Part shown: positions 5,821 through 60,164 of the stretch, in pieces
Numbering within the stretch: position 1 is the stretch's first letter
How the letters are laid out: every line of letters begins with the position of its first letter
Assembly: GCF_006345805.1 (NCBI RefSeq)
Contig: NC_043001.1
Coordinates: 59,954,001 to 60,018,000, forward strand
Length of the DNA: 64,000 bases
Direction of reading: 5' to 3'
From: Octopus sinensis
Lineage: Eukaryota
Notes under the pieces: model-generated
Seen by the model: the letters and a program-made list of their open reading frames with translations, nothing else
Told to the model about the DNA's origin: nothing
Databases searched by the model: none
Translations under genes and position numbers: made by a program

Positions 5821-7820
5821 TATATATATATATATATAGGGAGAGTTTACGAAAAAAACACAAGACGAAGACAGGTAGTGTACAAAACAAACACATGTAT
5901 TAGTATAACGCTCAGGAATAGAAAAAGTCTTTTACGTTTCAAGCCTACGCTCTTCTACCGAAAGGGATATAGAAAAACAACAAGGAGAGAAAAAAATGTG
6001 TGTAGCGACTGACTGCCGGACAGAAGGGTCACACAAGAGAGCGAAGAAGTAGGGGAGATAGCAAAGTAAATATGACCTCCAACACGAAGGTGCGTGTGTG
6101 TATAAGAGAGTATGTATGTGCGTGTGAAAGAGGGCTGGTTGTCTGGACGTGTGCGCGTATGTATGTATAGGTGTGAAAATGTGGGGATGGGAATTGGTCA
6201 GTGCTGGTGTGTGGGTGGTGTGTTGTGATGTGTAATGTTGTATGGTGTAGTGTTGTGTGGTGTGATGTTGTTGGGAAGTGGGGGAGGCGAGAGTGGGGAA
6301 AGCACGGGTGGGGTGTGGGTTCGCCTGAGAGTTGGGGTATGTGGGAAGGCTGAGGGTGGGGGTAGAGGTGGGGTATCTGGGAGAGGGTGTAGGGGATAGA
6401 TGGGGATGGGATGGGGGATGGGAAGAATAGGGAAGGCGGAGTAGGAAAGTGTAGGGGTGGGGTGGGCTTATGGGGAAGGGTTGACAATGAAGGGGGAAGG
6501 GGAAGGTGGTATGTGAGGAGAGAGAGTAAGAGAGAAGAGTGAAGAGAGAGAGAGTAAAAGAGAAGAGAGAAAGAAAGTAAAAGAGAAGAAAGAAGAGAGA
6601 AAGAGAAGGTGAAAGAGTAAGAGAGAAGAGGGAAAGAGAAAAGGGTGAAGAGAAGTAGGAGTGAAGAGAAGTAGGAGTTGGGACAATAGAGGAGAGTTGG
6701 GTGGGAGGAAGTAGGAGGGTGAGGGAGAGAGTCAAGAGGAGGATGTTAGACGAAGAGGGGAGGAGAGTTGAGCCCAGATGGCGTAAAGGAGCGAAGAGAG
6801 AAGATTAATCCCTGTTCATGGCGAAAACTGGAGTCATGATGGCCTCTGTGCAAGAACAATCCGAACACGAACAGGTGTTGCAAAGAGTGACCTTTAGAGC
6901 GGAAATGGCGCGAGACCGGGGTGTCATTGCCGAGGCGGATGTCTCGGAGCTGTTCCGCGAACCGGTCAGCCAAGCGGCGTCCCGTTTTTCCGATGCACAG
7001 AGAATGGCAGAGAGAGCAGGGGATGCAATACATGATATTGGTGGAGGTGCAGGTGAAGGAGTCAGTGATGCAATAGGGTTGATGATGGGTGCCGGTGAGG
7101 AGGGCGGCGTAGGCGGAAGCAGGGGAACGAGCCAGGTTGGGAGGTAGGGTTGGGGATGAAGCTGTGGACCAAGAGGTCTCGTAGGTTGTGGGCTCGTTTG
7201 AAGGAGGGGAGGAGTCGGTTAGGGAAGATGTGTGAAGTGGACGGGTCGGACTGGAGATGCCGGAAAGCTCGGAGAATGGCGCGTTGGAGTTGTAGGGTAG
7301 TGGGGTGGTATGTGAGGGGAGAAGGGAGGCGGGAGACTTCAGAGCGGGTTCTTGGGGAGAGAGCACATGCACGGTCGAATGAACGTGCTCTGGCAAAGTT
7401 GGTGTGGATAGTGGTGAGGGGATATCCACGTAGGATGAAGTGGCGAGCCATGAGTTGAGACTGAGTCTCAAAGTCATGGTCATCACTATAGAGCCTGCGG
7501 AGACGGAGGAATTGGGAATAGGGGATGGAAAGCTTAGTGTCTTTGGGGTGGGAGGAGAAGAAGTTAAGGTATGGGTGTGAGTTTGTGTGTTTGTAGTGGA
7601 TGGAGGTGGTAAGAGTGGAGGGATGAATGATGAGCGAAATGTCAAGAAAGGAGACAGAGGTGTCAGAGATAGTGCAGGAGAAGTGGAGGGCAGGATGGAA
7701 AGATTTGACAAAAAAGAGGAAGGAGTCTAGATGTTCGCGGGAGAGTGACGTGGCACTGATAAAGTCATCAATATAACGGCCATATAGTTCGGGAGTGAGA
7801 CCAGTGAAACTAGAGAATAT
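5821..7820 (-). mobile_element. 5'-truncated Penelope-like retroelement: RT C-terminus, GIY-YIG endonuclease, 3' terminal repeat with HHR-like motif (5928-5965)
   Basis: ELYGRYIDDFI RT motif near 7750-7790; NIMYCIPCSLCHSLCIGKTGRRLADRF...PVSRHF...GLN GIY-YIG-like domain in ORF 6746-7711; frameshifted; flanked by TA repeats. Confidence 0.9.
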
Positions 7821-7844
7821 TATATATATATAATATATATATAT

Positions 7845-7916
<72 letters not shown>

Positions 7917-8178
7917 GCAATTAAGGACAACTACTTAATAAGGAAAACTTAACAAAAATTGTCAGGTAGATAGCGTGAAAACCTCATAAGAGAAAAAATT
8001 TCGAAAATAATTATTTCTTATTGAACATATTAATTATATATAGAGGGCATTATACATACATGCCAGATGGCATTATACATACATGCCACACGCTAAGAGG
8101 GACAATTAGTCATTTCTACCAAAAATATTACTAATCCCACCGAATGCAATTTTTCAAAGTAAGATATTTAAAAAATAT

Positions 8179-8226
8179 AGACCTGTATCACCGTGATTTC
8201 ATACTTACGTATTCATCAGCAGGCCT
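8179..8226 (-). ncRNA. Type I hammerhead ribozyme (identical copy at 8653-8700)
   Basis: aggcctg CTGATGA atac-gtaa-gtat GAAA tca-cgg-tga TA caggtct: full core and three stems. Confidence 0.9.
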
Positions 8227-9310
8227 GGATGTATCATACATAAACGACCCTGCCTCGCTTAAGCCGATCAGCTAACTGATCAACATCAACGAAGCACATG
8301 GGTGAGTTTACATATATTACATCCTGTAAATGTCAGACTTTTACGAATTGCATTTCGGGAAAGGAAAAGTTTTTTCGGAATAAAAATTTAGCAATTAAGG
8401 ACAACTACTTAATAAGGAAAACTTAACAAGAAATTGTCAGGTAGATAGCGTGAAAACCTCATAAGAGAAAAAATTTTGAAAATAATATTTCTTATTGAAC
8501 ATATTAATTTATATATAGAGGGCATTATACATACATGCAGATGGCATTATACATACATGCCACACGCTAAGAGGGACAATTAGTCATTTCTACCAAAATT
8601 ATTACTAATCCCACCGAATGCAATTTTTCAAAGTAAGATATTTAAAAAATATAGACCTGTATCACCGTGATTTCATACTTACGTATTCATCAGCAGGCCT
8701 GGATGTATCATACATAAACGACCCTGCCTCGCTTAAGCCGATCAGCTAACTGATCAACATCAACGAAGCACATGGGTGAGTTTACATATATTACATCCTG
8801 TAAATGTCAGACTTTTACGAATTGCATTTCGGGAAAGGAAAAGTTTTTTCGGAATAAAAATTTAGCAATTAAGGACAACTACTTAATAAGGAAAACTTAA
8901 CAAGAAATTGTCAGGTAAAGTATGAAATCACGGTGATACAGGTCTATATTTTTTAAATATCTTACTTTGAAAAATTGCATTCGGTGGGATTAGTAATATT
9001 TTTGGTAGAAATGACTAATTGTCCCTCTTAGCGTGTGGCATGTATGTATAATGCCATCTTATTTCTTTATTACGATTATACAATCGTTACATAGAAGTAC
9101 AAATACAGGACATACATGCAAAACAAATAATTAAGACGTTCGATTTAAAAATTTTCCATGACATTTGGATTAAAAAATTCGTCTATAAATTGTCCTTTAC
9201 GTGACCAATAGAATCTTATAACATTTCATAACCTTTCGATCTTACCGAAGTTTTAAACCCCGGCAATTTATAAGGGCCCGCAGCTTTTGTTTCCTCTCCT
9301 CCCTCCATAG

Positions 9311-12300
9311 TTAAGCTGGGTTTCTGACACCCACCTTTTTTTCCACTTCCTTCCATCTTTTCTCATACACACCCCGTGGTAAGATCCTCTTTTCCAGCCC
9401 CATTTTGCTCTTCAGATGATATCTGAAGTAAGTGAGCAAGCCGGGGCCCGAGACAAAGGATCCTATCGCGACTCCTTCCATTCTTGTTCTCCACATGCAT
9501 TCTTTTACTACTGCAACCGTGCAGTGGAAACATGCCTCACCTTCCTTCGAGAGTCCAGTTGGCGGTATCATCTTAATCATAGACTCAGCCGACAGCTGTA
9601 CTCGTCCCAGATGCGATAACACGTGTTCTGCGTAACTTATCAAGTCTGACAACTTCCGACAGTGTACAAAAGCGTGCTGGACGGTTTCATCGTCCAACTC
9701 GCACCTTGGACACGTCGGTGGCACTGAAATTCCGTGCCGCGATAACTTCTCGCGAACAGGTAAAGCATTCCTATAGCACTGCCCAGGCAGGGATCTTTGG
9801 AAATTATCCAAGTACCCCGTCCTGAAAGTCTTTTTAACAGGTTGGTAAGCTGGTCTTCGTCAAACCCCAGAGCCCCTCCTAGGACGTCGTCGTTCTTTGC
9901 CTCTACCAGCCTTCTATAAAATACCGAGGTGGTATTTCCGCAGCCGGCCTTGCCCGCCTTGTGGATCAGCGTGAGTGCCTGTCGGCACTCCTTTTGCCAT
10001 AAAGTCAGTTTCCATCTTTTGATGCGACCGGGTTTAAAATTCGCTAAGGAGGCCGGTCTCGGGAAAAATTCCCCTGCCAGCGGACTTCACACCTTATCAC
10101 CCTCCAGGTGGTGCCAGAGATGCTTCAGCCTCAACGCATGTCTGCGCATCATCAACCAAGGCATTCCTAACCCACCCTTCAACGGTTCCTGGCAGCAAAC
10201 GGAGCGCCTCACAAGTGGCTTTCCTCCCTTTCACAAAAAGCGGAAAAGGATTCGCTCCAACTTGCTAAGCCATGAATCGGGGCAAGGGACAACGGTCAGG
10301 CGGTAAGTGATTACAGATGCAATGAACATCTGTACCACCTCCGCCCTTCCTTTCAAGACAGAAACCTTCCGGACCAGGTCCGTACTATGGCCTCCACCTT
10401 GCTCGTCACCTCACTCCAGTTCCTCTCCGTTTGGGAGTCTGGCCCAAACCAGACTCCTAGCAACTTAACAGGGCCATCCGTCCAGTGTCCCACGACACTG
10501 GACGATATCGACTTGCTCCTCCAGGTGCCGAGGCGCAAGCCAACCGACTTGTCCTTGTTAACCTTTGCTCCTGCCACCGCCTCGTATCCTCTGATAGCCT
10601 CTTCCACACAAGGTAGCTGGGCCTCATTGGACACGATGAGGGTGACGTCATCCGCATAAGCAGTAACCGTCCTCCCACCTCCGATCTCATCCGAGTTGCT
10701 TCCCAGCCTCTCCAACTTTCGCAGCAATGGCTCAAGAGCCAACACGTACAAAAGTGGTGACAAGGGGCACCCTTGACGAACTGAACATTCAATCGAAAAC
10801 GGTTCCGTTAGGTAACCGTTTATCTGGACGGTGGACTTGATGCCGCTATACATAGCGGAGATCCACCCGCGAAATTCAGGGCCCAGTCCAGCCGCTTCGA
10901 GGATCGTCGCCAGGTACTCATGGTCTACCCTATCGAACGCTTTACTTTGGTCTAAATGGACCATTACCCCGCCCTTGCCGGTTAATTTACCCACCCTGTC
11001 TAAGGTGTAGCGTATAAGGTGAAGATTGTCCTGGATCGACCTGCCTGGAATTGCACATGTCTGTGCTCTCCCTACAAGTTTCTCCACGACAACCGTCAAC
11101 CTTTTTGCCAACACCTTGGCCAAAATCTTTAACTCTACATTAAGTAGAGTTATGGGCCTGTAGTTACTAATGTTATCCCCCTTGCTCGGGTCTTTCTGGA
11201 TTAGCGTCACCACTCCCCGGCTTACAGAGCTGGGAATTCTCCCATTCTGCTGCCAGTTCGTGTAGACGCCTGCCAATATTCCCCCGAACAAGTCCGGCAT
11301 ACTTTGGTAAAACTCGTAGGGCAGACCATCCAACCCCGGCGACTTCTCCCCGGCGCATCCGGCCAGTATCCCCTCTATCTCCGCGGGAGTGATCGCTTCT
11401 TCACAGCACTCCACCTCACGCCCCGAGAGCCGCGGTCCGCCGGCCAGGAAGTCCTTTAAGGTCCTCCCCCGCTCCGCGCCACACCACCCCCGAACACGCG
11501 GGCGAAATGCTGGTGAAGAAACTTTTGCATCTCCTCCTGTCCATAGATCTTTTGTCCCTGTTCGTCAGTTAAAGATTTGATTGAGGTTTTGTTACCTCTC
11601 TGACTCTCCACTCGACGGGCCCATCCGGCAACGTTAATACCTTCTCGTTTCCCAGCGCGTAGCTTAGCTCTGACTCTGCAACCTTCGTGTTTGGAGTTAG
11701 GTGACGGTACAATACCGTCCTTGCCGCCAACACTCCGGATGCAGAGCCAGCTTCCATTGCCTCGTTTAGATTCTTAACTAAATCGTCCTCTATCCTAGAC
11801 CTATCTAACCTTAGCTGATTGCTAAATCTAATGGACTCTGAACGAATGGCTCTTTTGAGGGAGTGCCACCATCTATTGTTAATGATGGTGCCACACAATG
11901 CCCTCTGTACTAACACCTTAATCCGGGTACGGAAGTCTTCACAATTCAAAATAGCCTTGTTCAGCTTCCAGTACCCGGTCCCTGTCTATGACACTTGTCC
12001 AATTGCATCCTACACGTCACAAATTTGTGATCCGTGTAAGGCACAATGTGGAACTGTGGACAACTAAACGTATCCTTATCTCTTTTCTTAATAAATATCC
12101 TATCTAAATACGATCTGCGTGAGCCGTCGTTGTTACTCCACGTCCACTGTGGAACGCTCGGCTCATCCAGTCGGTAACGGTCCACTAGATCAAAGCTCTC
12201 TAGTAGACCCTTGAGGCTAGGGTTCCCCTTCCTATTGGTTGAGCCAACACTGTCGACCCGCGCTTCAAGGACAGTGTTAAAGTCCCCTACTAGGATTACC

Positions 12301-12697
12301 GTTTTCGCGACGTCGCTAAAAAGGGCTCCAGGTTCCGAAAAAAACCCGTCTGTCTACTCTCGTTCGGAGCGTAGACAGCTACCAACCTGAAGGACTGTTT
12401 ACTTACGTGGGTCACATCCAGAACAACCAGCCTGCCTTCTGGGTCCAGAAAGACAGTACTTACCTGCAAGTCCAAGCTCTTCCTGATAAGGACTGCCACG
12501 CCTCTGCCTCTTCCTTGGCTAGGAGAAATAAATTTCTCGAACCCATTTAGAAGAGGCGAGAACGCTTGGGCCCCGTTCATCTTGGACTCGGTTGCAATAG
12601 CTATGTCTACTCCATGTGTCGTGAGGTCGTCCAGGAAGCAAATTTGTTTCCATTCCGACCCCATTCCACGTACATTCACACAACCCAGCTTAGCCAT
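9311..12697 (-). pseudogene. Tx1 ORF2 (AP endonuclease, reverse transcriptase, C-terminal Cys/His motif), frameshifted
   Basis: NVRG, VYAPN, YLDRIF and YTDH APE motifs; KSPGLDGLPYEFY, DQSKAFDRV, VRQGCPLSP and YADD RT motifs; CPRC...H...C at the end. Confidence 0.93.
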
Positions 12698-12724
12698 TGT
12701 CGGTGAGAGGAAAAATAAATGAAC

Positions 12725-14157
12725 TTACGGTTGAGAAAGGGAGCATGACAGTTTAAATCTGCCCGCTTCCCCTTCTTCCTCCCTTGTGGTCGTAGCTGCA
12801 GGGCTCTTGACCGGCGTTGCCACCGGGCTCTGGGTAGGTGTGGTTGCCGGGGTTATCACAAGTTTACCCTCCAGTACTTCTTTTGTTACATCTCTAATCA
12901 GTCTGTTCTTTAGATGTTCCTGCAGTACTTCCTCCTTCCACCCGTCTTCCCCCACTTTTGCGAAGCGAGTGGTTGCTTTTATGTCTGTAGCCTTGCTAAA
13001 TAGTTGGAATTTTGAAAATTTATAGTATTTATATACCCTTTCGTTTTTTTCATCAAAAGCAATGATCTTATCATTTTTTTTAAAGACTTTTTCACATCTT
13101 GTTTTATGGGGAGGGGCTTGGCAAACTGTTTCCCAATGAAAACAGTGCCATGGGGGTAGGGCTGGGGAATTTGCTTTATGTGTGTGTCTGCGGTGCTTGC
13201 TGATTTTTTCCTTGTTTGGGGAGGGGAGTCCAGGGTGTTGTCTTTTTTTCTTTTGTGTGTCACCTGTGTAAAATCCATTTGTTCGGTACAATCCGTTTCT
13301 GTTTCTTTTCTTGTCGTCGTCTTGTTTTCTTTTTCCCCCTTCTCCCCTTCAGTGTTAGAAGCACTTTGAGGAGGGGCTTCATTGGTTTTCTTTTTTTTTA
13401 AGCAGTTCGAGCGGACGTGCCCCTTCTCGCCACATTTAAAACATCTGGGTCTGCGCCCCTCCACTGACACTCTCATGGACGTTCCATCTTCGTTAAATAT
13501 TCTATCGGGCAGGTTCTCCAATATCTTGTTCTCTGCTTGAACGAGGAGTTCCAGCGTCTGTCCCTTCCAGCGTACCTCCTCTTTCCTTCTCATCTGCAGA
13601 ATCGAAATCTCCCGCTCAACATTGTGCAGGACCGCCGCTGCTACCCACATAATATCATACCCTCTCGGTATGTCCTCTACCAGCAGTTTGGCTGTTCGTT
13701 TTCCCATATACGAGGGTAGCAGCATGATATCATCATTTTTCAGGGTCAATGATGACACCTCTCTTGCTACCTCAGCCGAGTCAAAATGCGCTTCAACAGT
13801 AGCGCTTCGAGCACCTCGAACGACATGGCGAATTTTGTCCCACACCGGGGACAAGCACTTTTCGACAATTTCATTCCTGACGTCCATAATTTTCTTTTAT
13901 TTGTAGCTATACACTTTGTATATCACTGTTTTCTCCTTTATCTCTTGTACCTTCGCTTGCGGCGGCACAAGTCTGATCTCGTTTCCTTCCATTTTCACCA
14001 AGTTCCTAAATTCGAACAGTTGTTCGATCTTGAATTCAACGTCCATCATGGTTCCGCCTACCGCGGCCGAAAAAGACTGTTTTGTTACTTCCGTGTCCTT
14101 TAATTCACTTGTTCCCATCGCGGGAAAATCATTCTTCGACGCCAAGTCGAAATCCAT
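12725..14157 (-). pseudogene. Tx1 ORF1 (gag-like nucleic-acid-binding protein with CCHC knuckle), split over three frames
   Basis: CFKCGEKGHVRSNC zinc knuckle in ORF 12979-13887; adjoining ORFs 13897-14157 and 12725-13291. Confidence 0.85.
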
Positions 14158-14669
14158 TTCTCAAAAAAATTACCTCGAAGGTAATAACAATTTTAAATAC
14201 AGAATTTTCTGCCCCGTAGGGCGAATTACCGTTACACAACGGGCACTGTTCAAATAACAATTAACACAATCAACGATAAGCAAAAATTCGAACTCTCTCA
14301 ACAAAAGGCAGCAAATTTCTCAAAACGCAGATGAAATAAAAGTATAATGGCATCTGGTATGTATGTTTAATGCCCTCTATATATAAATTAATATGTTCAA
14401 TAAGAAATAATTATTTTCGAAATTTTTTCTCTTATGAGGTTTTCACGCTATCTACCTGACAATTTCTTGTTAAGTTTTCCTTATTAAGTAGTTGTCCTTA
14501 ATTGCTAAATTTTTATTCCGAAAAAACTTTTCCTTTCCCGAAATGCAATTCGTAAAAGTCTGACATTTACAGGATGTAATATATGTAAACTCACTCATGT
14601 GCTTCGTTGATGTTGATCAGTTAGCTGATCGGCTTAAGCGAGGCAGGGTCGTTTATGTATGATACATCC

Positions 14670-14717
14670 AGGCCTGCTGATGAATACGTAAGTATGAAAT
14701 CACGGTGATACAGGTCT
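14670..14717 (+). ncRNA. Type I hammerhead ribozyme (identical copies at 15144-15191 and 15619-15666)
   Basis: aggcctg CTGATGA atacgtaagtat GAAA tcacggtga TA caggtct; predicted cleavage after A14710. Confidence 0.9.
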
Positions 14718-15802
14718 ATATTTTTTAAATATCTTACTTTGAAAAATTGCATTCGGTGGGATTAGTAATATTTTTGGTAGAAATGACTAATTGTCCCTCT
14801 TAGCGTGTGGCATGTATGTATAATGCCATCTGGCATGTATGTATAATGCCCTCTATATATAAATTAATATGTTCAATAAGAATAATTATTTTCGAAATTT
14901 TTTCTCTTATGAGGTTTTCACGCTATCTACCTGACATTTCTTGTTAAGTTTTCCTTATTAAGTAGTTGTCCTTAATTGCTAAATTTTTATTCCGAAAAAA
15001 CTTTTCCTTTCCCGAAATGCAATTCGTAAAAGTCCTACATTTACAGGATGTAATATATGTAAACTCACCCATGTGCTTCGTTGATGTTGATCAGTTAGCT
15101 GATCGGCTTAAGCGAGGCAGGGTCGTTTATGTATGATACATCCAGGCCTGCTGATGAATACGTAAGTATGAAATCACGGTGATACAGGTCTATATTTTTT
15201 AAATATCTTACTTTGAAAAATTGCATTCGGTGGGATTAGTAATATTTTTGGTAGAAATGACTAATTGTCCCTCTTAGCGTGTGGCATGTATGTATAATGC
15301 CATCTGGCATGTATGTATAATGCCATCTATATATAAATTAATATGTTCAATAAGAAATAATTATTTTCGAAATTTTTTCTCTTATGAGGTTTTCACGCTA
15401 TCTACCTGACAATTTCTTGTTAAGTTTTCCTTATTAAGTAGTTGTCCTTAATTGCTAAATTTTTATTCCGAAAAAACTTTTCCTTTCCCGAAATGCAATT
15501 CGTAAACGTCTGACATTTACAGGATGTAATATATGTAAACTCACCCATGTGCTTCGTGATGTTGATCAGTTAGCTGATCGGCTTAAGCGAGGCAGGGTCG
15601 TTTATGTATGATACATCCAGGCCTGCTGATGAATACGTAAGTATGAAATCACGGTGATACAGGTCTATATTTTTTAAATATCTTACTTTGAAAAATTGCA
15701 TTCGGTGGGATTAGTAATATTTTTGGTAGAAATGACTAATTGTCCCTCTTAGCGTGTGGCATGTATGTATAATGCCATCTGGCATGTATGTATAATGCCC
15801 TC

Positions 15803-15877
<75 letters not shown>

Positions 15878-15882
<5 letters not shown>

Positions 15883-16231
15883 CATGTGCATATATGGGTA
15901 AAAGACGCTACCAACACTAAACAACATGAAATACGAAAACAAATTAGTTCAAAACGCAAAAACTAGAGAAACAAATGGAAAACAGGATAAATAACATAAA
16001 GGACGACCTTTCATCAGTTGTCGTCTGTCTATCTATTCCTCATTTCGAGCATTCAACAACAATATGAACCTTCGAAGTGTTGCTCCCATAAGTACCAAAA
16101 TAAAATTTGGGATTTATGGAGGGTCAAAGTTGGGAACAAAAGTTCGCGTATTTGAACTCATTTGTTTTCGTATTTCATGTTGTTTACTCTTGGTGACGTC
16201 TTGTAGCCATATGTGCATGTGTAAATGTTGA

Positions 16232-16355: not shown

Positions 16356-17050
16356 GTATATGCATGTAGGTATATAGATATTTATATTATTAAGTGATTG
16401 AACGCCACGCATCCATTTCCAAGTAAGCTTATCTTAATTCTTTTGATGCGACTCTACTCTAGTCTGTTTTCTCCCCCATCGTTTCTCTCTCATACTTTCT
16501 CTAATTTCCTTTTCTCCCCTTCATAGTTTTCTGTCTCTGTCTTCCCCTCTTTCTCCTTCTCTCTCTCTCGTTGGTCACACGTGACCATTGTCCATCTTTC
16601 TTTTCCTTATGTGATCATCTTTCTTTCAGGACTCTTCTAACGACTGTACGTATCATATCTCTCTCTTCTGTCTTTTCACTTGTCAAAAAGAATATTATAT
16701 CCAGCATTCGCTATTCTACCTTCTTTCTGGTGTAACAACTCTCCATGTTTGTTTTCTTTCGGTTTCCTTCTATGTCTCCAGTGACTTGTTTTTGCTCCCG
16801 ACTTTGACCCACCATAATTCCTAAATTTTATTTTGGTACTCATGGGGGAAATTGTCTTCGAAGACTCATATTGTCGTTCAATGCTCGAAATGAGGAGTAG
16901 ATAGACAGCCGACAACTGATGGAGGGTCGTTCTTTATGTTACTTGTCCTGTTTTCCATTTGTTTCTCTTGTTGTTTGCGTATTGAACTCATTTGATTTGG
17001 TATTACTGTTGCTGATGTCCTGTACCCATATATGCATGTATATATATATA
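15878..17050. mobile_element. Non-coding two-armed element: inverted left arm (15878-16141) and a right arm longer than one unit (16142-17050), in TA/TG microsatellite
   Basis: 15880-16141 is the reverse complement of ~16788-17045; 16142-16230 repeats ~16972-17045. Confidence 0.8.
16865..16927 (+). ncRNA. Candidate hammerhead with unconventional strand order (inverted copy at 16006-16068)
   Basis: ctca-TA-ttgtcg / gctc-GAAA-tgag / cgacaa-CTGATG(G/A)-a(g/a)ggt; stems I and III pair in both copies, stem II is weak. Confidence 0.4.
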
Positions 17051-25430: not shown

Positions 25431-26214
25431 ACACACACATGTCACATACATACGCAAACAAGAATTTACAGACACATAAACCACAAATATTTTTGCATAT
25501 AATCGAAGATATGCATATGTACACGCTAACATACGCCAGCACAGATGCTAATTTTCCGCACGGGATGATGTGCAGTGAAAAGTACATAAAAAAAGAAGGA
25601 AAATGCATATATTTTATATATTTTGAATTTATTTTAAAGGATAAAATAATTTGATAGCCTAGTGATTTCGCGTTTCACTTATCATGACTCTGAAATTCGT
25701 GAAAATATTACAATTTTGTATTTTCTTCAAGAGATTTTAGTCCAAGTTGCATGCATGAGAGTTTGTAAATACACTTACATATAAAAAAAATAGTGCTGGG
25801 GGAGGTATTTGGTGATTGTTATTATTCGAAACAGAGGAGGTAATTGCATTGATTTTGGGACGTACACTTTTTTTATGGTAAACATTTGGGGAGGGTAAAT
25901 TAATATTATTTCTATTATGAATTTATAAACTCATGAGTTAAAGTAGTGGAATATATGCAAAGTTGGTTTTATACACACACACACGCACACACACACACAC
26001 TAATACACATGCACACACACACACACACACATACACACACATATATATATATATGCTATTATTAACAATTATTATAATGAATATTATAATTTTCACCTTT
26101 AAAAGTATTTTAATATGCTGGCCAGTTTGATGGAATTTATTTTGGAAAAAACTTTATCCTATATTAGAAATATATATGTGTGTGTATGTGTAGATATATG
26201 TATATATGTATATT

Positions 26215-26310
<96 letters not shown>

Positions 26311-27487: not shown

Positions 27488-28277
27488 CTTCTTTTATTGG
27501 CCACAGGGGCCAAACACAAAAAAATAGGGACGATACGATACAAGGGACAAGTGGGGTGTCGAACAACGCCGTGTATACGATAAGTAAGAAAAACAATTAA
27601 CAAAACAATTATACAATTAAAATTCTCCAAAAGTTGGGTGTTCCTCACAGGAACAACCGAGGAATGCCACAGATTCTTTTTATCCTGACTGCTAGATTCA
27701 CCTCAACAGGCGCCTCACTCCTCAAGCTCATAAGGTATACAAACGAATGTTCAGAGTAGGCCCATTAATACATTCACCCACCTTTCAACACATTTACTGG
27801 GGGGAAGAACTTCCCTCTCTACCGTCACTTTCCTTGTCAGGTGGAACTGGAAAAGCTTGATAAGAACTTGGCAAAGAACAAAGTATCTGTCTTCAGTCCT
27901 TTCAATCTCGTTCACTACGTTGCCTTCTTCCCTTTAGCCACTAGACAGAAGAAAATTTCCGTTCCTTCTCGGTTAAGGATGGCGGCGGGGGCGTTGCCCA
28001 CGATGGACTCGACTGATAGTCGAATCTGTCCTACATGCGAAAACAGCTCTTCGACAAAGCTCCACAAGTCTGTAATGTGATGGACGAGTGCATGCAGGAC
28101 GGTTTAGTCGCTCTGCGCATACCTCTGACAGGTCCGTCTGACAGCAGTTCTTTGTCTGTAAAGCTTGTCTCGAACGGGCATAGCTCCCAGGTAGCACTGC
28201 CAGGCTAGGGATTTCTGAAAGTTATCCATAGGTTCCGGTTCGAATGTCCTCCAAAAATCAGTTAATTCACCCCTGCC
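27488..28277 (-). mobile_element. Second Tx1-like LINE, 3' part (decayed)
   Basis: Similar to 9311-9850 (MDNFQ.SL...; verified by eye); AATAAA followed by (TTA)n. Confidence 0.7.
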
Positions 28278-30115
28278 GTATTATACCTCACCGCATAATA
28301 CTGGTTCCGTACCCCTCTGAAGAACACTAAAATTCACTCATCAATCCACAAACACTCTCCAAACCTTTCCCATCATTTATCTCTTGCCTCTTTCACACCT
28401 CTAACCATCAAAACTTACCTCACTCCCTTCATCCAAACACTCCGAGGAATATCCTATTAGGTTTCTAGTATTTTTTTATTCTAGTTTTTCTTTTATTCTC
28501 GTCTTTGAACTTCCTCATTCCTCATCCTGTTCATTCGTGTCACACCAACCATTCGTGTCCCACCAGCCCCGACGTCCCTGCACCATATAACCATATAACG
28601 CCCTCCTCTTTTCGCTTTCATGTTCAACCTTTTTATCTCTCAGTATACCTTTCACAACACCAAGTATCTTACTCTCCTCTCTCACTCTATATTCCCCTCA
28701 GTCAACCCCTCCATCCGCCGTCACATGTGACCCTTGATACTTAAAAACACACATCTCCTCTAACATCTCACGATTTATATTCACAACCATCCCATCACCT
28801 TACTTTTAGCTACATTCACTTTCAGTTTCTTCCTCTCACTCACTCTTCCAAATTCTATCACCAGTCTCCTCAGCAGCTCTTCAGAATCCGCCACCAGTGC
28901 AATATATCATCAGCAAACAACTCCTGATTCACCTGAAATTTCTCTCTCATCACATCATCCATATATAAATCAAACGGCCACGGAGACATCACACAACACT
29001 GTCTTAACCCCACCTTCAAATCAAACCACTCACTTCACCACCAACCCTAAAGCATGCCCTAGTTTCTCTATAAAACCTCACAACAGCTCTCAACAATTTA
29101 ACACCTACCCCATGCAACCGCAACACCTGCCACATAGCATCCTTATCCACTCGGACAAATGGCTTCTTTAGGCCCATAAAGACCCAATACTCCTCTCTCC
29201 CTTTTGCCAAATATTTCTCATACGTCTATCTCACTACAAACATTTGATCTGTATACCCACTTCCACTCCTATAACAACACTGCTCCTCCCTTAGTACACT
29301 TTCTGCCTGGTTCCTCACCTTTACAATCAGAACTCTCCTATACAGTTTACCAAATCACACACAACAGTCTTATACTCCTAAAATTTCCACACTCACATAT
29401 ATCTCTTTTCCCCTAGTACCATGGCATTATACAGGCACTGCACCAGTCTTTTAGTACTCTTCTAGCCATATAACAAACATTCATAAGCATCACTAACCAT
29501 TCAATTACTGTCACTGCTTTCTTTAGGCATTCCCCTGTACACCCATCTAGACCTAGCGCCTTCTGGTTTCCCATCTTCCGCAGGGATTCCTTAATCTCCT
29601 CTCTTCCAGTTGCACCGTGGTACCATTTCCCAACAACAGTCATCCTCCTCTCACCTCCTAAAGCCTTTATACTTGCTTCCCTAACACCCTCCTTATTTAA
29701 CAGTTCATTAAAATGCCATGCCCCTCTCCTTCGTACATCCTCATTTCCTTTCACCGAATTTCCATTTACAACCTTCACCCTTTCTTTCATTCATCAAACC
29801 ACCTTTCTTTCCATCTGTGCCACTTTCCAAAACATCTTTTTATTTCTTACAAAATTTTCACACAACTTTTTTCCGAACCTTTCACTCGCCTCCCATTTCT
29901 CCACCCTCACCACTCTCTTTACTCTCCTCTTCACTTCTCTGTAGCGATCATAAGCCTCTCTATCCCCTTTCTGCAATCACTCTTCAAGGGACCCTTTTTC
30001 TTCTCTACTACTGCGTCGTTTACCTGCTCATTCTACCACTCACTACTTTTTCTCACACCCATTCCAACCACTCGTGTCCACATACATCAAAGGTACATCT
30101 TATTACTGCCTCTCT
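28278..30115 (-). mobile_element. RTE-clade LINE fragment nested in the Tx1 relic
   Basis: KALGLDG...ECLKK...DWCSACIMPWY, VFMGLKKPFVRVDKDAMWQVLRLHGV and LFADD. Confidence 0.8.
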
Positions 30116-31200
30116 AAAGACAAATAGGAAAAATCATGTGTGACAAACGCGACCACACCTGCTCACTGTTAAGGAAACATTGGAGATGTTGCAGCCTCAG
30201 TGCGTTTCATCACATCATTAGCCAAGTTATATCGAGTCCTCCACTCAGTGGCTGTTGACAACAGATGGACTGTTTGGTGAGCGGAACACGTCCCTTCTAC
30301 AGGGAAAGAGACGACAGCCAGGCGGTAGATGTTGGAAGCGATGTACACATTCGCCACCTCTGCCCGACCCTTCAGGGACAGCTTCCTCTCTGACAATTTC
30401 TAGGTGAGATTAGTTACCCTGCTCATACTCTTCCCACTTCTTGTCCACCTGGAGGTCCGAACCAAACCAGACCCCAAACAATTTAAGCGGATCTTCCGTC
30501 CTGCACCCCACAACGCTGTCGGTTGGCATGTATCTGCCCTTCCAGTTGCTGAGCGCAGGCTCAGCTACTTGTCCTGCTTAAATTTTGTTCTTGCCACTGC
30601 TTTGTATTTCCTTAAAGTAGTGCCGATCCCCTCGAATTCCGAGATGTCCGACACTATTACGGTGACATCGTGCACATATGCTGACACGAACCTTTTGCAT
30701 CCTAAATCACACGGATGCCCCTCGAAATATCCAAGTTCCTTAGTAATGGTTCGAGAGCCAGTGCGAACAGAAGGGGAGAGAGTGGACTTCCTTGACGGAC
30801 CGAATGAGCAATGCTAAACGACTGCGATAAGTAACTGTTTACTTTGGCCACCGAACAGATATCACTGTACATTGCAGTGATCCAGCGTCTAAAAACGGGG
30901 CCGAAATCAGTCGCTACGAGGACAGCCTCCAAGTATTGATGGTCGATCTTGTCAAAGGCTTTCGATTGATCCAAATTGATTAGGGCCCCACCCATGCAAG
31001 TTTCCTTTTCTACACTCTCTATGCTGTAGCATGTAAGATGGAGGTTGTCGTGGATAGATCTTTTCGGGATAGCGTATTTGTGTGCATCGCCGACCACCTT
31101 ATCGACAAACGCCAACTTCTTGGCTGATATCTTGGCCAAAATCTTATAATCTGCGTTCCAGAGGGTTATGTGCCCACAATTATTCGATCCCCCTTGTTTT
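30116..31200 (-). mobile_element. Second Tx1-like LINE, RT part (decayed, 5'-truncated)
   Basis: INLDQSKAFDKIDHQYL...VRQGSPLSPLLFALALEPLL; LSLKGRAEVANVYIAS; homologous to ORF 10353-11414. Confidence 0.88.
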
Positions 31201-32187: not shown

Positions 32188-32518
32188 GTCTTCTACTATA
32201 GCCTCGGGCCCACCAAAGCCTTGTGAGTGGATTTGGTAGACGGAAACTGAAAGAAGCCCGTCGTATATATGTATATATATGTATATGTATGTGTATGTGT
32301 ATATATTTGTGTGTCTGTGTTTGTCCCCCCCAACATCGCTTGACAACTGATGCTGGTGTCATTACGTCCCCGTAACTTAGCAGTTCGGCAAAAGAGACCG
32401 ATAGAATAAGTACTAGGCTTACAAAGAATAAGTCCTGGGGTCGATTTGCTCGACTAAAAAAGGCAATGCTCCAGCATGGCCACAGTCAAATGACTGAAAC
32501 AAGTAAAAGAGTAAAAGA

Positions 32519-32886: not shown

Positions 32887-32925
<39 letters not shown>

Positions 32926-32929
<4 letters not shown>

Positions 32930-33730
32930 ACGTAGGATAAAATTTCTTCGAAAAAAAATTTATCAATGGTCAGCATATTAAAAAATACCTTTAAAGGTTA
33001 AATTTATAAACAACTTATAAATAAGGGCAAACGAAAAGAATTTCTAATGCCAAATATGCCGAAATTAGACACCCTGTCCATAACTATAAAATTTTTCCCA
33101 ATACGCACGCTACTCAAAAAAGGTCGATAGAAATTTCTAAAAAATTCCATTATTAACATATCGGACCGATTTCAGGGTTAGTTCGTAAGAAGCCTCCCTT
33201 CGTCAGTGATAAATTCGGCAAAGAAATGAATGAGATACTTACTCATACCCATGTAAGACGCAAACATTAAGTCATGAGCACAATTAGGCTGGCCATTGAT
33301 AAAAGTTTTTTTCGAAAAATTTTATCCTACATTAAATATAAATTTAATAGTGTTCACTTCCGGACTGTCTCACTGTGTGAGAGCCTCAGTTCAAATCGCA
33401 CGTGTCACAAATGGGCTGGAGAATTTCTATTTTGGATGTATTTGGGGTACTTAATTGTGCTCATGACTTAGTATTTGCTTCTTCCATGGATATGAGTAAG
33501 TATCTCATTTATTTCTTTGCCACATTTATCACTGACGAAGGGAGGTTTCTTACCAACTAACCCTGAAATCGGTCCGATATGGTAATAATGGAATTTTTAA
33601 AAAATTTCTATCGACCTTTTTCGAGTAGCGTGCGTATTGTGAAAAAATATATGGTTATGGACAGGGTATCTAATTTCGGCATATTTGGCATTAGAAATTT
33701 TTCGTTTGCCCTTATTTATAAGTTTATATA
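32926..33730. mobile_element. Retrozyme-like element with two divergent, circularly permuted arms (junction ~33281)
   Basis: 33012-33281 is the reverse complement of 33455-33724; 32926-32975 is the reverse complement of 33288-33340; TA flanks. Confidence 0.85.
33526..33585 (+). ncRNA. Type I hammerhead ribozyme (inverted copy at 33153-33212)
   Basis: ttatca CTGACGA aggg-(18 nt)-ccct GAAA tcggtccga TA tggtaa. Confidence 0.88.
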
Positions 33731-55695: not shown

Positions 55696-55731
<36 letters not shown>

Positions 55732-55734
<3 letters not shown>

Positions 55735-56728
55735 TTTAACAATTAAGGATAATCTCTTAATAAGGGATCTTAACAAGAAATTATCAGGCAGCTAGCGTGA
55801 AAACCTCATAAAAGAAAAGAATTCGAAAATAATTTTTTTCTTTTGAACAAATTAATTATATCTATATTGTATAGAGGGCATTATTACACATAAATGCCTC
55901 ACACTAAGAGGGACAAAGTCATTACTACTACCCAATTATACTAATCATACCCAAATGCAGTTTTTCAAAGCAAGACATTTAAAAAAATGAATTTAGTTCT
56001 GTATCACCGTGATTTCACATTCAACTTTACGTCTTATGATCCTCAGCAGAACTGATTCAGAATCAGTTCTGCTGAGGATCATAAGACGTAAAGTTGAATG
56101 TGAAATCACGGTGATACAGAACTAAATTCATTTTTTTAAATGTCTTGCTTTGAAAAACTGCATTTGGGTATGATTAGTATAATTTGGGTAGTAATGACTT
56201 TGTCCCTCTTAGTGTGAGGCATTTATGTGTAATAATGCCCTCTATACAATATAGATATAATTAATTTGTTCAAAAGAAAAAAATTATTTTCGAATTCTTT
56301 TCTTTTATGAGGTTTTCACGCTAGCTGCCTGATAATTTCTTGTTAAGATCCCTTATTAAGAGATTATCCTTAATTGTTAAACTTATTCCGAAATACTTTT
56401 CATTACCCGACATGCAGTTCGTAAAAAGCCCGCCATTTACCGGATATATGATTTATAAACATTCCATGTGCCTGGCCGGAGTGAGCAGTTGTCTGTTCGT
56501 CTTCGCTACGTAAGGTTGGTAGTTTATTTATGATGTGTTCAGAATCAGTTCTGCTGAGGATCATAAGACGTAAGTTGAATGTGAATCACGGTGATACAGA
56601 ACTAAATTCATTTTTTTAAATGTCTTGCTTTGAAAAACTGCATTTGGGTATGATTAGTATAATTTTGGTAGTAATGACTTTGTCCCTCTTAGTGTGAGGC
56701 ATTTATGTGTAATAATGCCCTCTATACA

Positions 56729-56730
<2 letters not shown>
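55732..56730. mobile_element. Retrozyme-like array B (482 bp period, diverged relative of array A), divergent arms centred on 56059
   Basis: 55732-56058 is the reverse complement of 56060-56386; HHRs at 55995-56053 (-), 56065-56123 (+) and 56547-56603 (+, one core A missing). Confidence 0.88.
56065..56123 (+). ncRNA. Type I hammerhead ribozyme
   Basis: agttctg CTGAGGA tcat...atgt GAAA tcacggtga TA cagaact. Confidence 0.8.
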
Positions 56731-56763
<33 letters not shown>

Positions 56764-57719: not shown

Positions 57720-59498
57720 TTTGCAATTAAGGACAACTACTTAATAAGGAAAACTTAACAAGAAATTGTCAGGTGATAGCGTAAAAACCTCATAAGAGAA
57801 AAAATTTCGAAAATAATTATTTCTTATTGAACATATTAATTTATATATAGAGGGCATAATTATACATACATGCCAGGAGGCATTATATATACCTGCCAAC
57901 GCTAAGAGGGACAATCAGTCATTTCTGCCAAAAATATTACTAATCCCACCGAATGCAATTTTTCAAAGTAAGACATTTAAAAATATATAGGCCTGTATCA
58001 CAGTGATTTCATACTTACGTAATCATCAGCAGGCCTGAATGCATTATAAATAAACAACGACGACCTTGCCTCGCTTAAGCCGAACAGCTAACTGATCAAC
58101 ATCAACGAAGCACATGGGTGAGTTTATATATATTACATCCGGGTGAATGGCAAACTTTTACAAAATTGCATTTCGGGAGAGGAAAAGTTTTTTCGGAATA
58201 AAAATTTTGCAATTAAGGACAACTACTTAATAAGGAAAACTTAACAAGAAATTGTCAGGTAGATAGCGTAAAAACCTCATAAGAGAAAAAATTTCGAAAA
58301 TAATTATTTCTTATTGAACATATTAATTTATATATAGAGGGCATAATTATACATACCCAGGAGGCATTATATATACCTGCCAAACGCTAAGAGGGACAAT
58401 CAGTCATTTCTACCAAAAATATTACTAATCCCACCGAATGCAATTTTTCAAAGTAAGACATTTAAAAATATATAGGCCTGTATCACAGTGATTTCATACT
58501 TACGTATCATCAGCAGGCTGAATGCATTATAAATAAACAACGACCTTGCCTCGCTTAAGCCGAACAGCTAACTGATCAACATCAACGAAGCACATGGGTG
58601 AGTTTATATATATACATCCGGGTGAATGGCAAACTTTTACAAAATTGCATTTCGGGAGAGGAAAAGTTTTTTCGGAATAAAAATTTTGCAATTAAGGACA
58701 ACTACTTATTCACACCACTTCACCCGGATGTAATATATATAAACTCACCCATGTGCTTCGTTGATGTTGATCATTTAGCTGTTCGGCTTAAGCGAGGCAA
58801 GGTCGTTGTTTATTTAAATGCATTCAGGCCTGCTGATGATTACGTAGTATGAATCACTGTGATACAGGCCTATATATTTTTAAATGTCTTACTTTGAATA
58901 ATTGCATTCGGTTGGATTAGTAATATTTTTGGTAGAAATGACTGATTGTCCCTCTTAGCGTTTGGCAGGTATATATAATGCCTCCTGGCATGTATGTATT
59001 ATGCCCTCTATATATAAATTAATATGTTCAATAAGAAATAATTATTTTCGAAATTTTTTCTCTTATGAGGTTTTTACGCTATCTACCGACATTTCTTGTT
59101 AAGTTTTCCTTATTAAGTAGTTGTCCTTAATTGCAAAATTTTTATTCCGAAAAAACTTTTCCTCTCCCGAAATGCAATTTTGTAAAGTTTGCCATTCCCC
59201 GGATGTAATATATATAAACTCACCCATGTGCTTCGTTGATGTTGATCAGTTAGCTGTTCGGCTTAAGCGAGGCAAGTCGTTGTTTATTTATAATGCATTC
59301 AGGCCTGCTGATGATTACGTAAGTATGAAATCACTGTGATACAGGCCTATATATTTTTAAATGTCTTACTTTGAAAAATTGCATTCGGTGGGATTAGTAA
59401 TATTTTTGGTAGAAATGACTGATTGTCCCTCTTAGCGTTTGGCAGGTATATATAATGCCTCCTGGCATGTATGTATAATTATGCCCTCTATATATAAA
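57720..59498. mobile_element. Retrozyme-like array C (~475-485 bp units, same family as A), divergent arms, junction ~58708-58720, in (TA)n
   Basis: HHRs at 57989-58036 and 58474-58519 (-), 58826-58871 and 59301-59348 (+). Confidence 0.9.
59301..59348 (+). ncRNA. Type I hammerhead ribozyme
   Basis: aggcctg CTGATGA ttac-gtaa-gtat GAAA tcactgtga TA caggcct. Confidence 0.85.
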
Positions 59499-60164
59499 TA
59501 TATATATATACATATATATATACATATATACTTATATATATATGCGCACATTTTCATTCGTGTATGTGTGTGTAGTGACGTGCTGCTGCACACCCTCGCA
59601 GAAATACAGAGATACACGTGTAACCATATAAGCACGTTCATACACTCAGATATGCAGATATATTCTTGCACACACCACCCTTATCTACTAAACCTCCATC
59701 CACGCGACCCATTTCCTATCCACAATGCGGTTGATATCCTGTTCACCATGCGGTATTCTCCAAGTAAATTATTATCACTAGTATACCAATACTAAAACAC
59801 TAATCTACGTCACGTTCCTCGACCAGTCGCAACCCAATTTACTGTAATAACACTCAGCCACTTTTGTTCAAATTCAAAATGGCTGAATATATTAGCATCA
59901 TGCTTGAAACTCGGAATACCAACGAAATTGAATCAAACTGTTTTGATCCACACACACATACACAGTTACACGCACATTCACACATATACGTAATTACTAA
60001 GGGATTTCTCCGGGTGGTTACCACAGTTAGCTCACGTTTAGTTCTTCAAGGTTAGCATATAAAACTTATAATAATTTTCATATAAGAATTTAGAGAATTA
60101 TTCCATTGGATTATTCTAAATATATCGACTTTAACCATATAGGATTACAGGAGTATTTGAGATC

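Follow-up and report, generated by a model that had tools for sequence, protein, structure and literature searches.

What kind of element is a 474-nt tandem repeat that carries a predicted hammerhead ribozyme in its units, and how did it come to lie as two inverted arms between (TA)n microsatellites? The question is raised by a locus of Octopus sinensis (assembly GCF_006345805.1, contig NC_043001.1, positions 59,954,001 to 60,018,000). This stretch of 64,000 nt was analyzed as a whole; it is called the window here and is numbered from its first letter. The repeat, referred to as locus A, extends from 7912 to 15813 and is interrupted by a long interspersed nuclear element (LINE). Judging from its sequence, it is a non-LTR (long terminal repeat) retrozyme and most likely a non-autonomous Penelope-type element, a reading to which we assign a probability of about 0.8.

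Hammerhead motifs and the repeat unit

A motif scan of both strands detected five identical type I hammerheads of 48 nt in the 7.9-kb interval. Three are located on the + strand (14670..14717, 15144..15191 and 15619..15666, with predicted cleavage after 14710, 15184 and 15659) and two on the − strand (8700-8653 and 8226-8179, with predicted cleavage after 8660 and 8186). The spacing is 474 and 475 nt on the + strand and 474 nt on the − strand. In the whole window six motifs were found, the sixth at 33526 belonging to another family, whereas 30 block-shuffled windows gave 0.0 on average and 0 at most. An earlier interpretation made from the letters only (the sequence-only reading) had named five identical type I hammerheads at 474-475 nt spacing in each arm and a cleavage site after A14710. 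The scan confirmed the former, which were absent from the shuffles, and predicted the same site.

Tandem Repeats Finder (TRF) reported a 474-bp unit in 2.1 and in 3.1 copies (98%), and the units of locus A are about 99% identical to each other. The hammerhead is complete in five of five complete units, with the core and stems I-III present, all conserved core bases in place and AUA as the cleavage triplet. Stem I has 7 bp and stem II 4 bp with a GUAA loop. Stem III lies within an 11-nt palindrome; the monomer would form 4 bp capped by a 3-nt loop, and the dimer 10 bp interrupted by a single mismatch at the centre. It had been called very short, which does not hold against the 1-2 bp of typical metazoan hammerheads (PMC4209133). 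The search with Rfam gave no hammerhead match in the window, neither at the gathering score nor at E<=10, where two chance matches to small nucleolar RNAs (E 9.8) on the right arm were the only ones. Since Rfam is silent, the hammerhead call is based on the core motif, the helices and the compensatory changes among copies.

The G + C content of the unit is about 33% (0.33 for 8001-9000), and no stop-to-stop frame of at least 70 amino acids (aa) exists inside the arms. The unit length of 474 bp is just above the range of 150-450 bp given in PMC7229834 and inside that of 51-972 bp given in bioRxiv 10.64898/2026.07.22.740005, so that the unit is not long for its class, as had been supposed. A type I hammerhead in every unit, the low G + C content, the missing open reading frame (ORF) and a strong predicted fold bear out the assignment to the non-LTR retrozymes that had been proposed on sight. 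The statement that there is no meaningful ORF is correct for the unit and wrong for the interval, where a LINE with pieces of ORF1 and ORF2 occupies 9060-14341.

Insertion layout at four loci

What the DNA shows directly is the anatomy of the repeat, the position of its ends, the layout shared by four loci, and the LINE together with its duplication. From left to right, locus A consists of a (TA)n microsatellite (7817..7913), the arm on the − strand, the inversion join, 142 nt on the + strand, an insert of 5282 nt, the rest of the + arm and a second (TA)n microsatellite (15803..15841). The left, inverted arm (7912..8917, − strand) comprises about 2.1 units from unit position 218 to 274, carries a "tail" of 120 nt and matches the unit up to 7912. 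At 8917/8918 it is joined to the forward arm on the opposite strand. This arm starts at 8918..9059 (+ strand) with the 3′ half of a hammerhead (8918-8945), stops at the LINE and continues beyond it (14342..15813, + strand) for about 3.1 units up to unit position 154. In the sequence-only reading the tandem arms were recognized; the inversion, the two fixed ends, the TA target and the nested LINE (5.28 kb) were missed.

Three further two-armed loci are present in the window. Locus B (57720..59499) has inverted arms without a LINE, TA repeats on both sides and the same two ends at unit positions 275 and 155; its units carry 6-8% substitutions relative to A over full units (about 93% identical). 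Locus C (55730..56733) has a 480-nt unit, inverted arms between TA repeats, homologous ends and a tail of 133 nt, and its units diverge from A by about 26% (about 74% identical). Locus D (approximately 32922..33724) belongs to the other hammerhead family. Its unit of about 476 nt is arranged in an inverted layout with a tail of about 90 nt; the left flank is a long (TA)n, the right one a short run of TA. A blastn comparison of its unit with A or C gave no significant match, only pieces of 24-28 nt. The description of the element as young suits the insertion at A, with units about 99% identical, but not the family, since relatives of 93% and 74% identity occur in the same window. Outside the LINE, hammerhead elements make up 10.6% of the window.

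All four two-armed loci share one layout, namely a TA repeat, an inverted tandem arm, a variable join, a forward tandem arm and a TA repeat. The forward arm ends at unit position 154 (A), 155 (B), 137 (C) and about 147 (D), and the inverted arm at 274, 275, 270 and about 237, respectively, the positions for D being read from the printed sequences. One arm is longer in every case, by 120 nt in A and B, 133 nt in C and about 90 nt in D. The arm with the tail is the shorter one in A and C and the longer one in B. In A, B and C both ends fall on homologous bases, whereas joins, copy numbers and flanks differ; these loci are therefore independent insertions with ends set by the mechanism. Microhomology of the near arm end with (TA)n blurs this end by about 10 nt. 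Predicted hairpins occur just 5′ of both arm ends, in an AU-rich context.

The join in A connects unit positions 218 and 454. That in C (56059/56060) forms an almost perfect palindrome, at the centre of which lies a small palindrome native to the unit, and that in B (58709-58725) contains about 10 extra bases resembling a local stutter. The design of locus D parallels that of A-C in the palindromic stem III, the near-equal unit length (about 476 versus 474-480 nt) and a near end with GCCCT followed by TA-rich sequence; D may be a distant relative of A-C, or the likeness may result from a length constraint. A remnant at 26084-26177, 81% identical to the tail end of D, lies on the + strand beside (TA)n at 26194-26307, which shows that not every tail points to the left. 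A motif guessed to be common to the far ends gave 0 matches and was dropped, the spacing differing between the families.

Variants within and between insertions

The fixed substitutions that distinguish A from B are present in both arms of both loci in 26 of 26 columns. Within A, 17 of 18 variant columns are private to one unit, and the one shared column is a single-base deletion in a T run. Within B no variant is shared and 54 are private, about 19 of which are an artefact of the alignment ends. This pattern fits both arms of a locus having been copied from one unit sequence, followed by mutation or sequencing error, and it fits a circle and a homogeneous linear multimer equally.

Predicted RNA folding

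The linear unit is predicted to fold with −138.8 kcal/mol (z −8.7 versus shuffles), and both local hairpins that had been pointed out in the sequence-only reading are present and paired in this fold. For circular folds, z-scores of −11.4 on the hammerhead strand and −4.5 on the antisense strand of A, −5.9 for B and −5.2 for C were calculated (25 shuffles each). Stem I pairing is kept across A, B and C, with a G-U pair changed to G-C in B and two U-A pairs in C. In all four loci, stem III is a palindrome of 11 nt whose central base is free, with different letters in D. Two copies of the A motif are predicted to fold exactly as a domain-swapped double hammerhead (−32.9), and the full double fold is likewise predicted for B, C and one D motif, the other D motif pairing in stem III only. 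The models leave out tertiary contacts. They favour the double hammerhead for the isolated motif, in line with the dimer form expected earlier, and make cleavage of the hammerhead RNA as a dimer plausible. A circular unit RNA from the 474-nt repeat appears likely.

Probable Penelope-type insertion

Insertions of Penelope-like elements (PLEs) are described as partial tandems, often with an inverted 5′-truncated copy, a tail of 30-40 bp at one end and a bias for microsatellites, the Naiads showing an insertion bias for (TA)n (PMC8557442). A partial tandem with an inverted truncated copy is present at four of four two-armed loci. Save for tail length, these loci fit the published PLE marks on every count, and we infer that a PLE protein acts in trans. 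In experiments with a purified PLE protein, for which a dimer is predicted, both strands of AT-rich DNA were nicked and extended. Synthesis began at two sites within the RNA, downstream of the hammerhead, and the tail corresponds to the stretch between them (PMC11167929). How PLEs form tandem and inverted insertions is unresolved according to PMC8557442.

For the 474-nt repeat, the cycle that we infer is as follows, including its transcription and cleavage steps, the circles, the nature of the partner and the sequence in which the events occurred. A transcript of the array would be cut by the hammerheads, probably as dimers via the palindromic stem III, into unit-length RNA, which may be ligated into circles. 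A Penelope-type protein with reverse transcriptase (RT) and GIY-YIG domains, supplied in trans, would nick both strands of a (TA)n target, and complementary DNA (cDNA) would be primed from each nick at two fixed internal RNA sites, about 154 and 274 nt downstream of the cleavage site. The two cDNAs would vary in length, often exceeding one unit, and be joined at their truncated ends. The outcome would be an inverted pair of tandem arms, one with a 120-nt tail. An unrelated L1/Tx1-like LINE would have been inserted later in one unit of locus A.

Two variants of this cycle were rejected. Simple twin priming on one linear RNA predicts joins near 154 or 274, but A is joined at 218/454, and B and C are joined at other positions. 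Nor does a fold-back of a single cDNA in fixed order agree with a tail arm that is shorter in A and C but longer in B.

The nested LINE

The insert at 9060..14341 (− strand) is a near full-length L1/Tx1-like LINE within one unit, antisense to the hammerheads. All its coding pieces lie on the − strand: ORF1 with a zinc knuckle (12979-13896; Pfam zf-CCHC, 1.1e-4), and pieces of ORF2 with the APE endonuclease (11961-12724; Exo_endo_phos, 1.1e-6, a second piece at 0.0052 being under the cut-off), the RT (10353-11564; RVT_1, 1.4e-33) and zf-RVT (9311-9859; 2.2e-8). The LINE was most likely inserted into a pre-existing array, because it is bounded by a 14-bp target-site duplication of unit sequence and has AATAAA close to its 3′ end. 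One copy of the duplication is located at the 3′ end of the LINE (9046..9059, + strand), and the second copy (14342..14355, + strand) has one mismatch at 14350. The LINE is absent from loci B, C and D.

The reading frames of the LINE are broken in this assembly. Contigs of the sequencing runs described below show indels of 1-2 bases relative to the window at 9835, 10356, 11475, 11698, 11976 and 12306, so that the frame breaks may be private to this copy or assembly errors. Substitutions at 14350, 14358 and 14367 cluster at the 5′ junction of the LINE, while the rest of this unit is about 99.5% identical to its neighbours; they may result from repair, a polishing error or a different target copy.

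Relatives of the nested LINE among longer proteins are polyproteins with APE and RT of about 1150 aa, at most 63% identical and mostly unnamed. A cluster look-up of five LINE relatives gave no names, and reference Tx1 proteins were not found among the protein matches. The Tx1 label is presumed from the ORF1 knuckle and the ORF2 layout. Metagenome relatives are 29-40% identical, too distant to inform target choice, and a hammerhead motif was found at 0 of 80 of their loci. A second LINE on the − strand (approximately 27490-31200) is 40-56% identical to the nested one at the aa level (tblastx pieces). Its 3′ end abuts a (TAA)n run, and its middle (approximately 28.3-30.1 kb) is broken up by other C/T-rich sequence.

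Sequencing runs and metagenomes

Among the 24 rows of sequencing runs listed, 20 hold part of the unit and 9 half or more of it, with 8 studies and 4 organisms represented; no run recorded as RNA was listed as containing the unit. Four of the 24 runs were compared with the window, all as assembled contigs, a form of data that shows neither RNA ends nor strand nor level. The contigs of two DNA-type runs from two organisms (X1, X3) are dense on both the unit and the LINE, which are therefore both multicopy families. Two further runs (X5, X8) are only guessed to be RNA, and their cover of unit and LINE was therefore given no weight in the question of expression. The predicted cleavage site is bridged by one X8 contig (14509-14864), as could be expected of DNA, a precursor or a circle alike. 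A joint from 14823 to 14368 (X1, X3, X8) is compatible with both tandem DNA and a circle. Flanks of other copies of the nested LINE were not found among the loose ends listed for the compared runs. In metagenome contigs, the hammerhead pattern of families A/B gave 0 matches.

Neighbouring elements

Directly left of locus A, a 5′-truncated and decayed fragment with a Penelope-like RT and GIY-YIG lies between two TA runs (approximately 5830-7816, − strand). It is presumably Neptune-like, and its nearest Atlas clusters carry PF26215 HTH_animal with a score of 0.97. A degenerate motif resembling a minimal hammerhead was seen by eye in this region at about 5925-5960. As a candidate partner of the unit, the fragment shows no sequence link, the unit having no significant match to its 3′ region (best E 0.59).

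Right of A, short inverted repeats at 15878-15957 and 16790-17011, matching 16146-16226 and 15922-16141 respectively, are probably another small mobile element. At about 32190-32510 there is a stretch which we take to resemble a short interspersed nuclear element (SINE) and a repeat common in octopus sequences.

Weighing of the explanations

Several points weigh against a retrozyme moved by a Penelope-type protein. The base of stem II is an A-U pair, versus the conserved G10.1-C11.1. Two-sided changes in 11 of 136 pairs of the A, B and C consensus count in its favour, but three sequences give little covariation power. The lone motif is predicted to misfold, with a stem III probability of 0.01 and −12.2 versus −9.7 kcal/mol for the hammerhead, and the dimer fold of two-hammerhead precursors depends on the construct, with a probability of about 0.99 for 14640-15221 but 0 for 14560-15300. 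The hammerhead of an anole PLE needed protein and was dispensable for insertion (PMC11167929), and one of nine predicted Xenopus retrozyme dimers was cleaved in vitro (bioRxiv 10.64898/2026.07.22.740005). The tail is 3-4 times as long as in published cases (30-40 nt). Between the two arms of D there is a difference of about 8%, which may mean two templates or simply age. No autonomous PLE partner was found for the unit, one adjacent fragment in the window having been compared.

Some of these points favour an alternative in which an uncleaved linear multimer, or repeated template jumps, would provide the template without a circle, the hammerhead being weak or protein-dependent and the element and its mobiliser the same. 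This is a serious contender, to which we give somewhat less than an even chance; it varies the RNA step of the Penelope-type reading and does not exclude that reading. It would suit the misfolding monomer and the construct-dependent dimer fold, the anole PLE, whose main substrate was unprocessed RNA and for which no reads ended at the cleavage site (PMC11167929), and the 8 of 9 tested Xenopus dimers that were left uncleaved. Yet the core and the helices are kept with compensatory changes across families that are 74% identical or unrelated, arrays from linear parents alone would shrink with every generation unless rebuilt, and the variants within a locus are private to single units and not inherited in register. 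Moreover, the retrozymes of coral, mussel and axolotl accumulate circles (PMC7229834). Circular RNA as template was proposed by Cervera and de la Pena (PMC4209133, PMC7229834). A more specific version of the Penelope-type reading is possible, if doubtful: the insertion would directly record the action of a Penelope-type RT dimer that was primed from the two nicked TA strands at two fixed sites and rolled round one hammerhead-made RNA circle of about 475 nt. If true, it would explain at once the arms of more than one unit, their common variants, the ends about 90-130 nt apart and the arbitrary joins.

A foldback-type DNA transposon or an amplified satellite, with the arms as terminal inverted repeats made of tandem repeats and the LINE as passive cargo, is suggested by the long inverted tandem arms around a 5-kb interior at locus A. 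It is very improbable and largely refuted by ends that are offset by 90-133 nt and thus are no mirror images; in addition, each locus has a different inner join, an interior is lacking in three of them, and the hammerhead and the stronger fold are confined to one defined strand. Hardly credible is a composite of 7.9 kb moved as a whole by the machinery of the enclosed LINE as its autonomous partner. The LINE is near full length and differs by about 1% from the closest X5/X8 contigs (e.g., 6 differences in 534 and 6 in 492), similar to the divergence within the array, and LINEs have been named as possible mobilisers of retrozymes (PMC7229834). Nevertheless, its orientation is antisense, it divides a unit and it is flanked by a 14-bp duplication of its own, B, C and D share the ends without any LINE, and tails with paired inverted ends are described as PLE features that are unseen in the target-primed reverse transcription of LINEs (PMC8557442). 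A separate proposal, that the LINE is a Tx1-clade element specifically targeting the 474-nt family at a 23-nt duplicated hairpin, is improbable. Many Tx1 families do target multicopy sequences, other transposons included (PMC4494074), and the three substitutions within 26 nt of the 5′ junction might follow recombination with a different target copy. On the other side, there is a single copy in the window, a chance insertion is plausible given the share of hammerhead elements in the remainder, and in the related LINE at about 27.5-31.2 kb it is a (TAA)n run that adjoins the end.

Comparison with known systems

The retrozyme class, the link to PLEs and the unit length are not new and are contained in a preprint of 2026 (bioRxiv 10.64898/2026.07.22.740005), in which Xenopus retrozymes are related to the pseudo-LTRs (pLTRs) of PLEs. 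As a family, the 474-nt repeat adds another animal retrozyme to those known, and its interest lies in the mechanism. The PLE insertion signature, present at four loci within 64 kb, ties retrozymes to the PLE machinery by integration geometry, which differs from the earlier links by co-occurrence or pLTR phylogeny. If the rolling-circle version were true, the loci would attest at the genomic level that the circles of animal retrozymes are reverse-transcribed in a rolling-circle mode, and they would offer a mechanism for the unexplained tandem and inverted form of PLE insertions. With its two predicted start sites, the unit is a small defined template for tests of this form of insertion and of circles as templates. 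A published account of cephalopod retrozymes was not found; Repbase and supplements, beyond that search, may already contain the family. Tails of more than 40 nt, or two-armed retrozyme insertions with such tails, were not found in the available parts of the literature examined. The word "inverted" is absent from the main text of PMC7229834 and occurs once in the available text of bioRxiv 10.64898/2026.07.22.740005, with no occurrence in parts 1-3 of 5.

With the metazoan non-LTR retrozymes (PMC7229834; bioRxiv 10.64898/2026.07.22.740005), the repeat shares tandem, ORF-less units of low G + C content with one type I hammerhead each, strong self-pairing of the unit, a proposed mobilisation by PLEs and a unit length within the published range. 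It differs from them by a longer stem III, the A-U pair at the base of stem II and its insertion as two inverted arms with fixed, offset ends. Circles and cleavage have been demonstrated in coral, mussel and axolotl, whereas for the 474-nt unit both are predictions. The nested LINE resembles the Tx1-clade and L1-group LINEs (PMC4494074) in the ORF1 zinc knuckle, APE, RT and zf-RVT, the target-site duplication and the location inside another mobile element. With PLE insertions, including those of non-autonomous Chlamys elements such as MRC1 (PMC8557442, PMC11167929), the four loci have in common the partial tandems, the inverted 5′-truncated copy, the tail at one end, the microsatellite or AT-rich targets and two internal start sites downstream of the hammerhead. 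Unlike PLEs, the unit has no RT/GIY-YIG ORF, the enclosed ORFs being the APE and RT of a LINE; the tail is longer, and both arms can exceed one unit.

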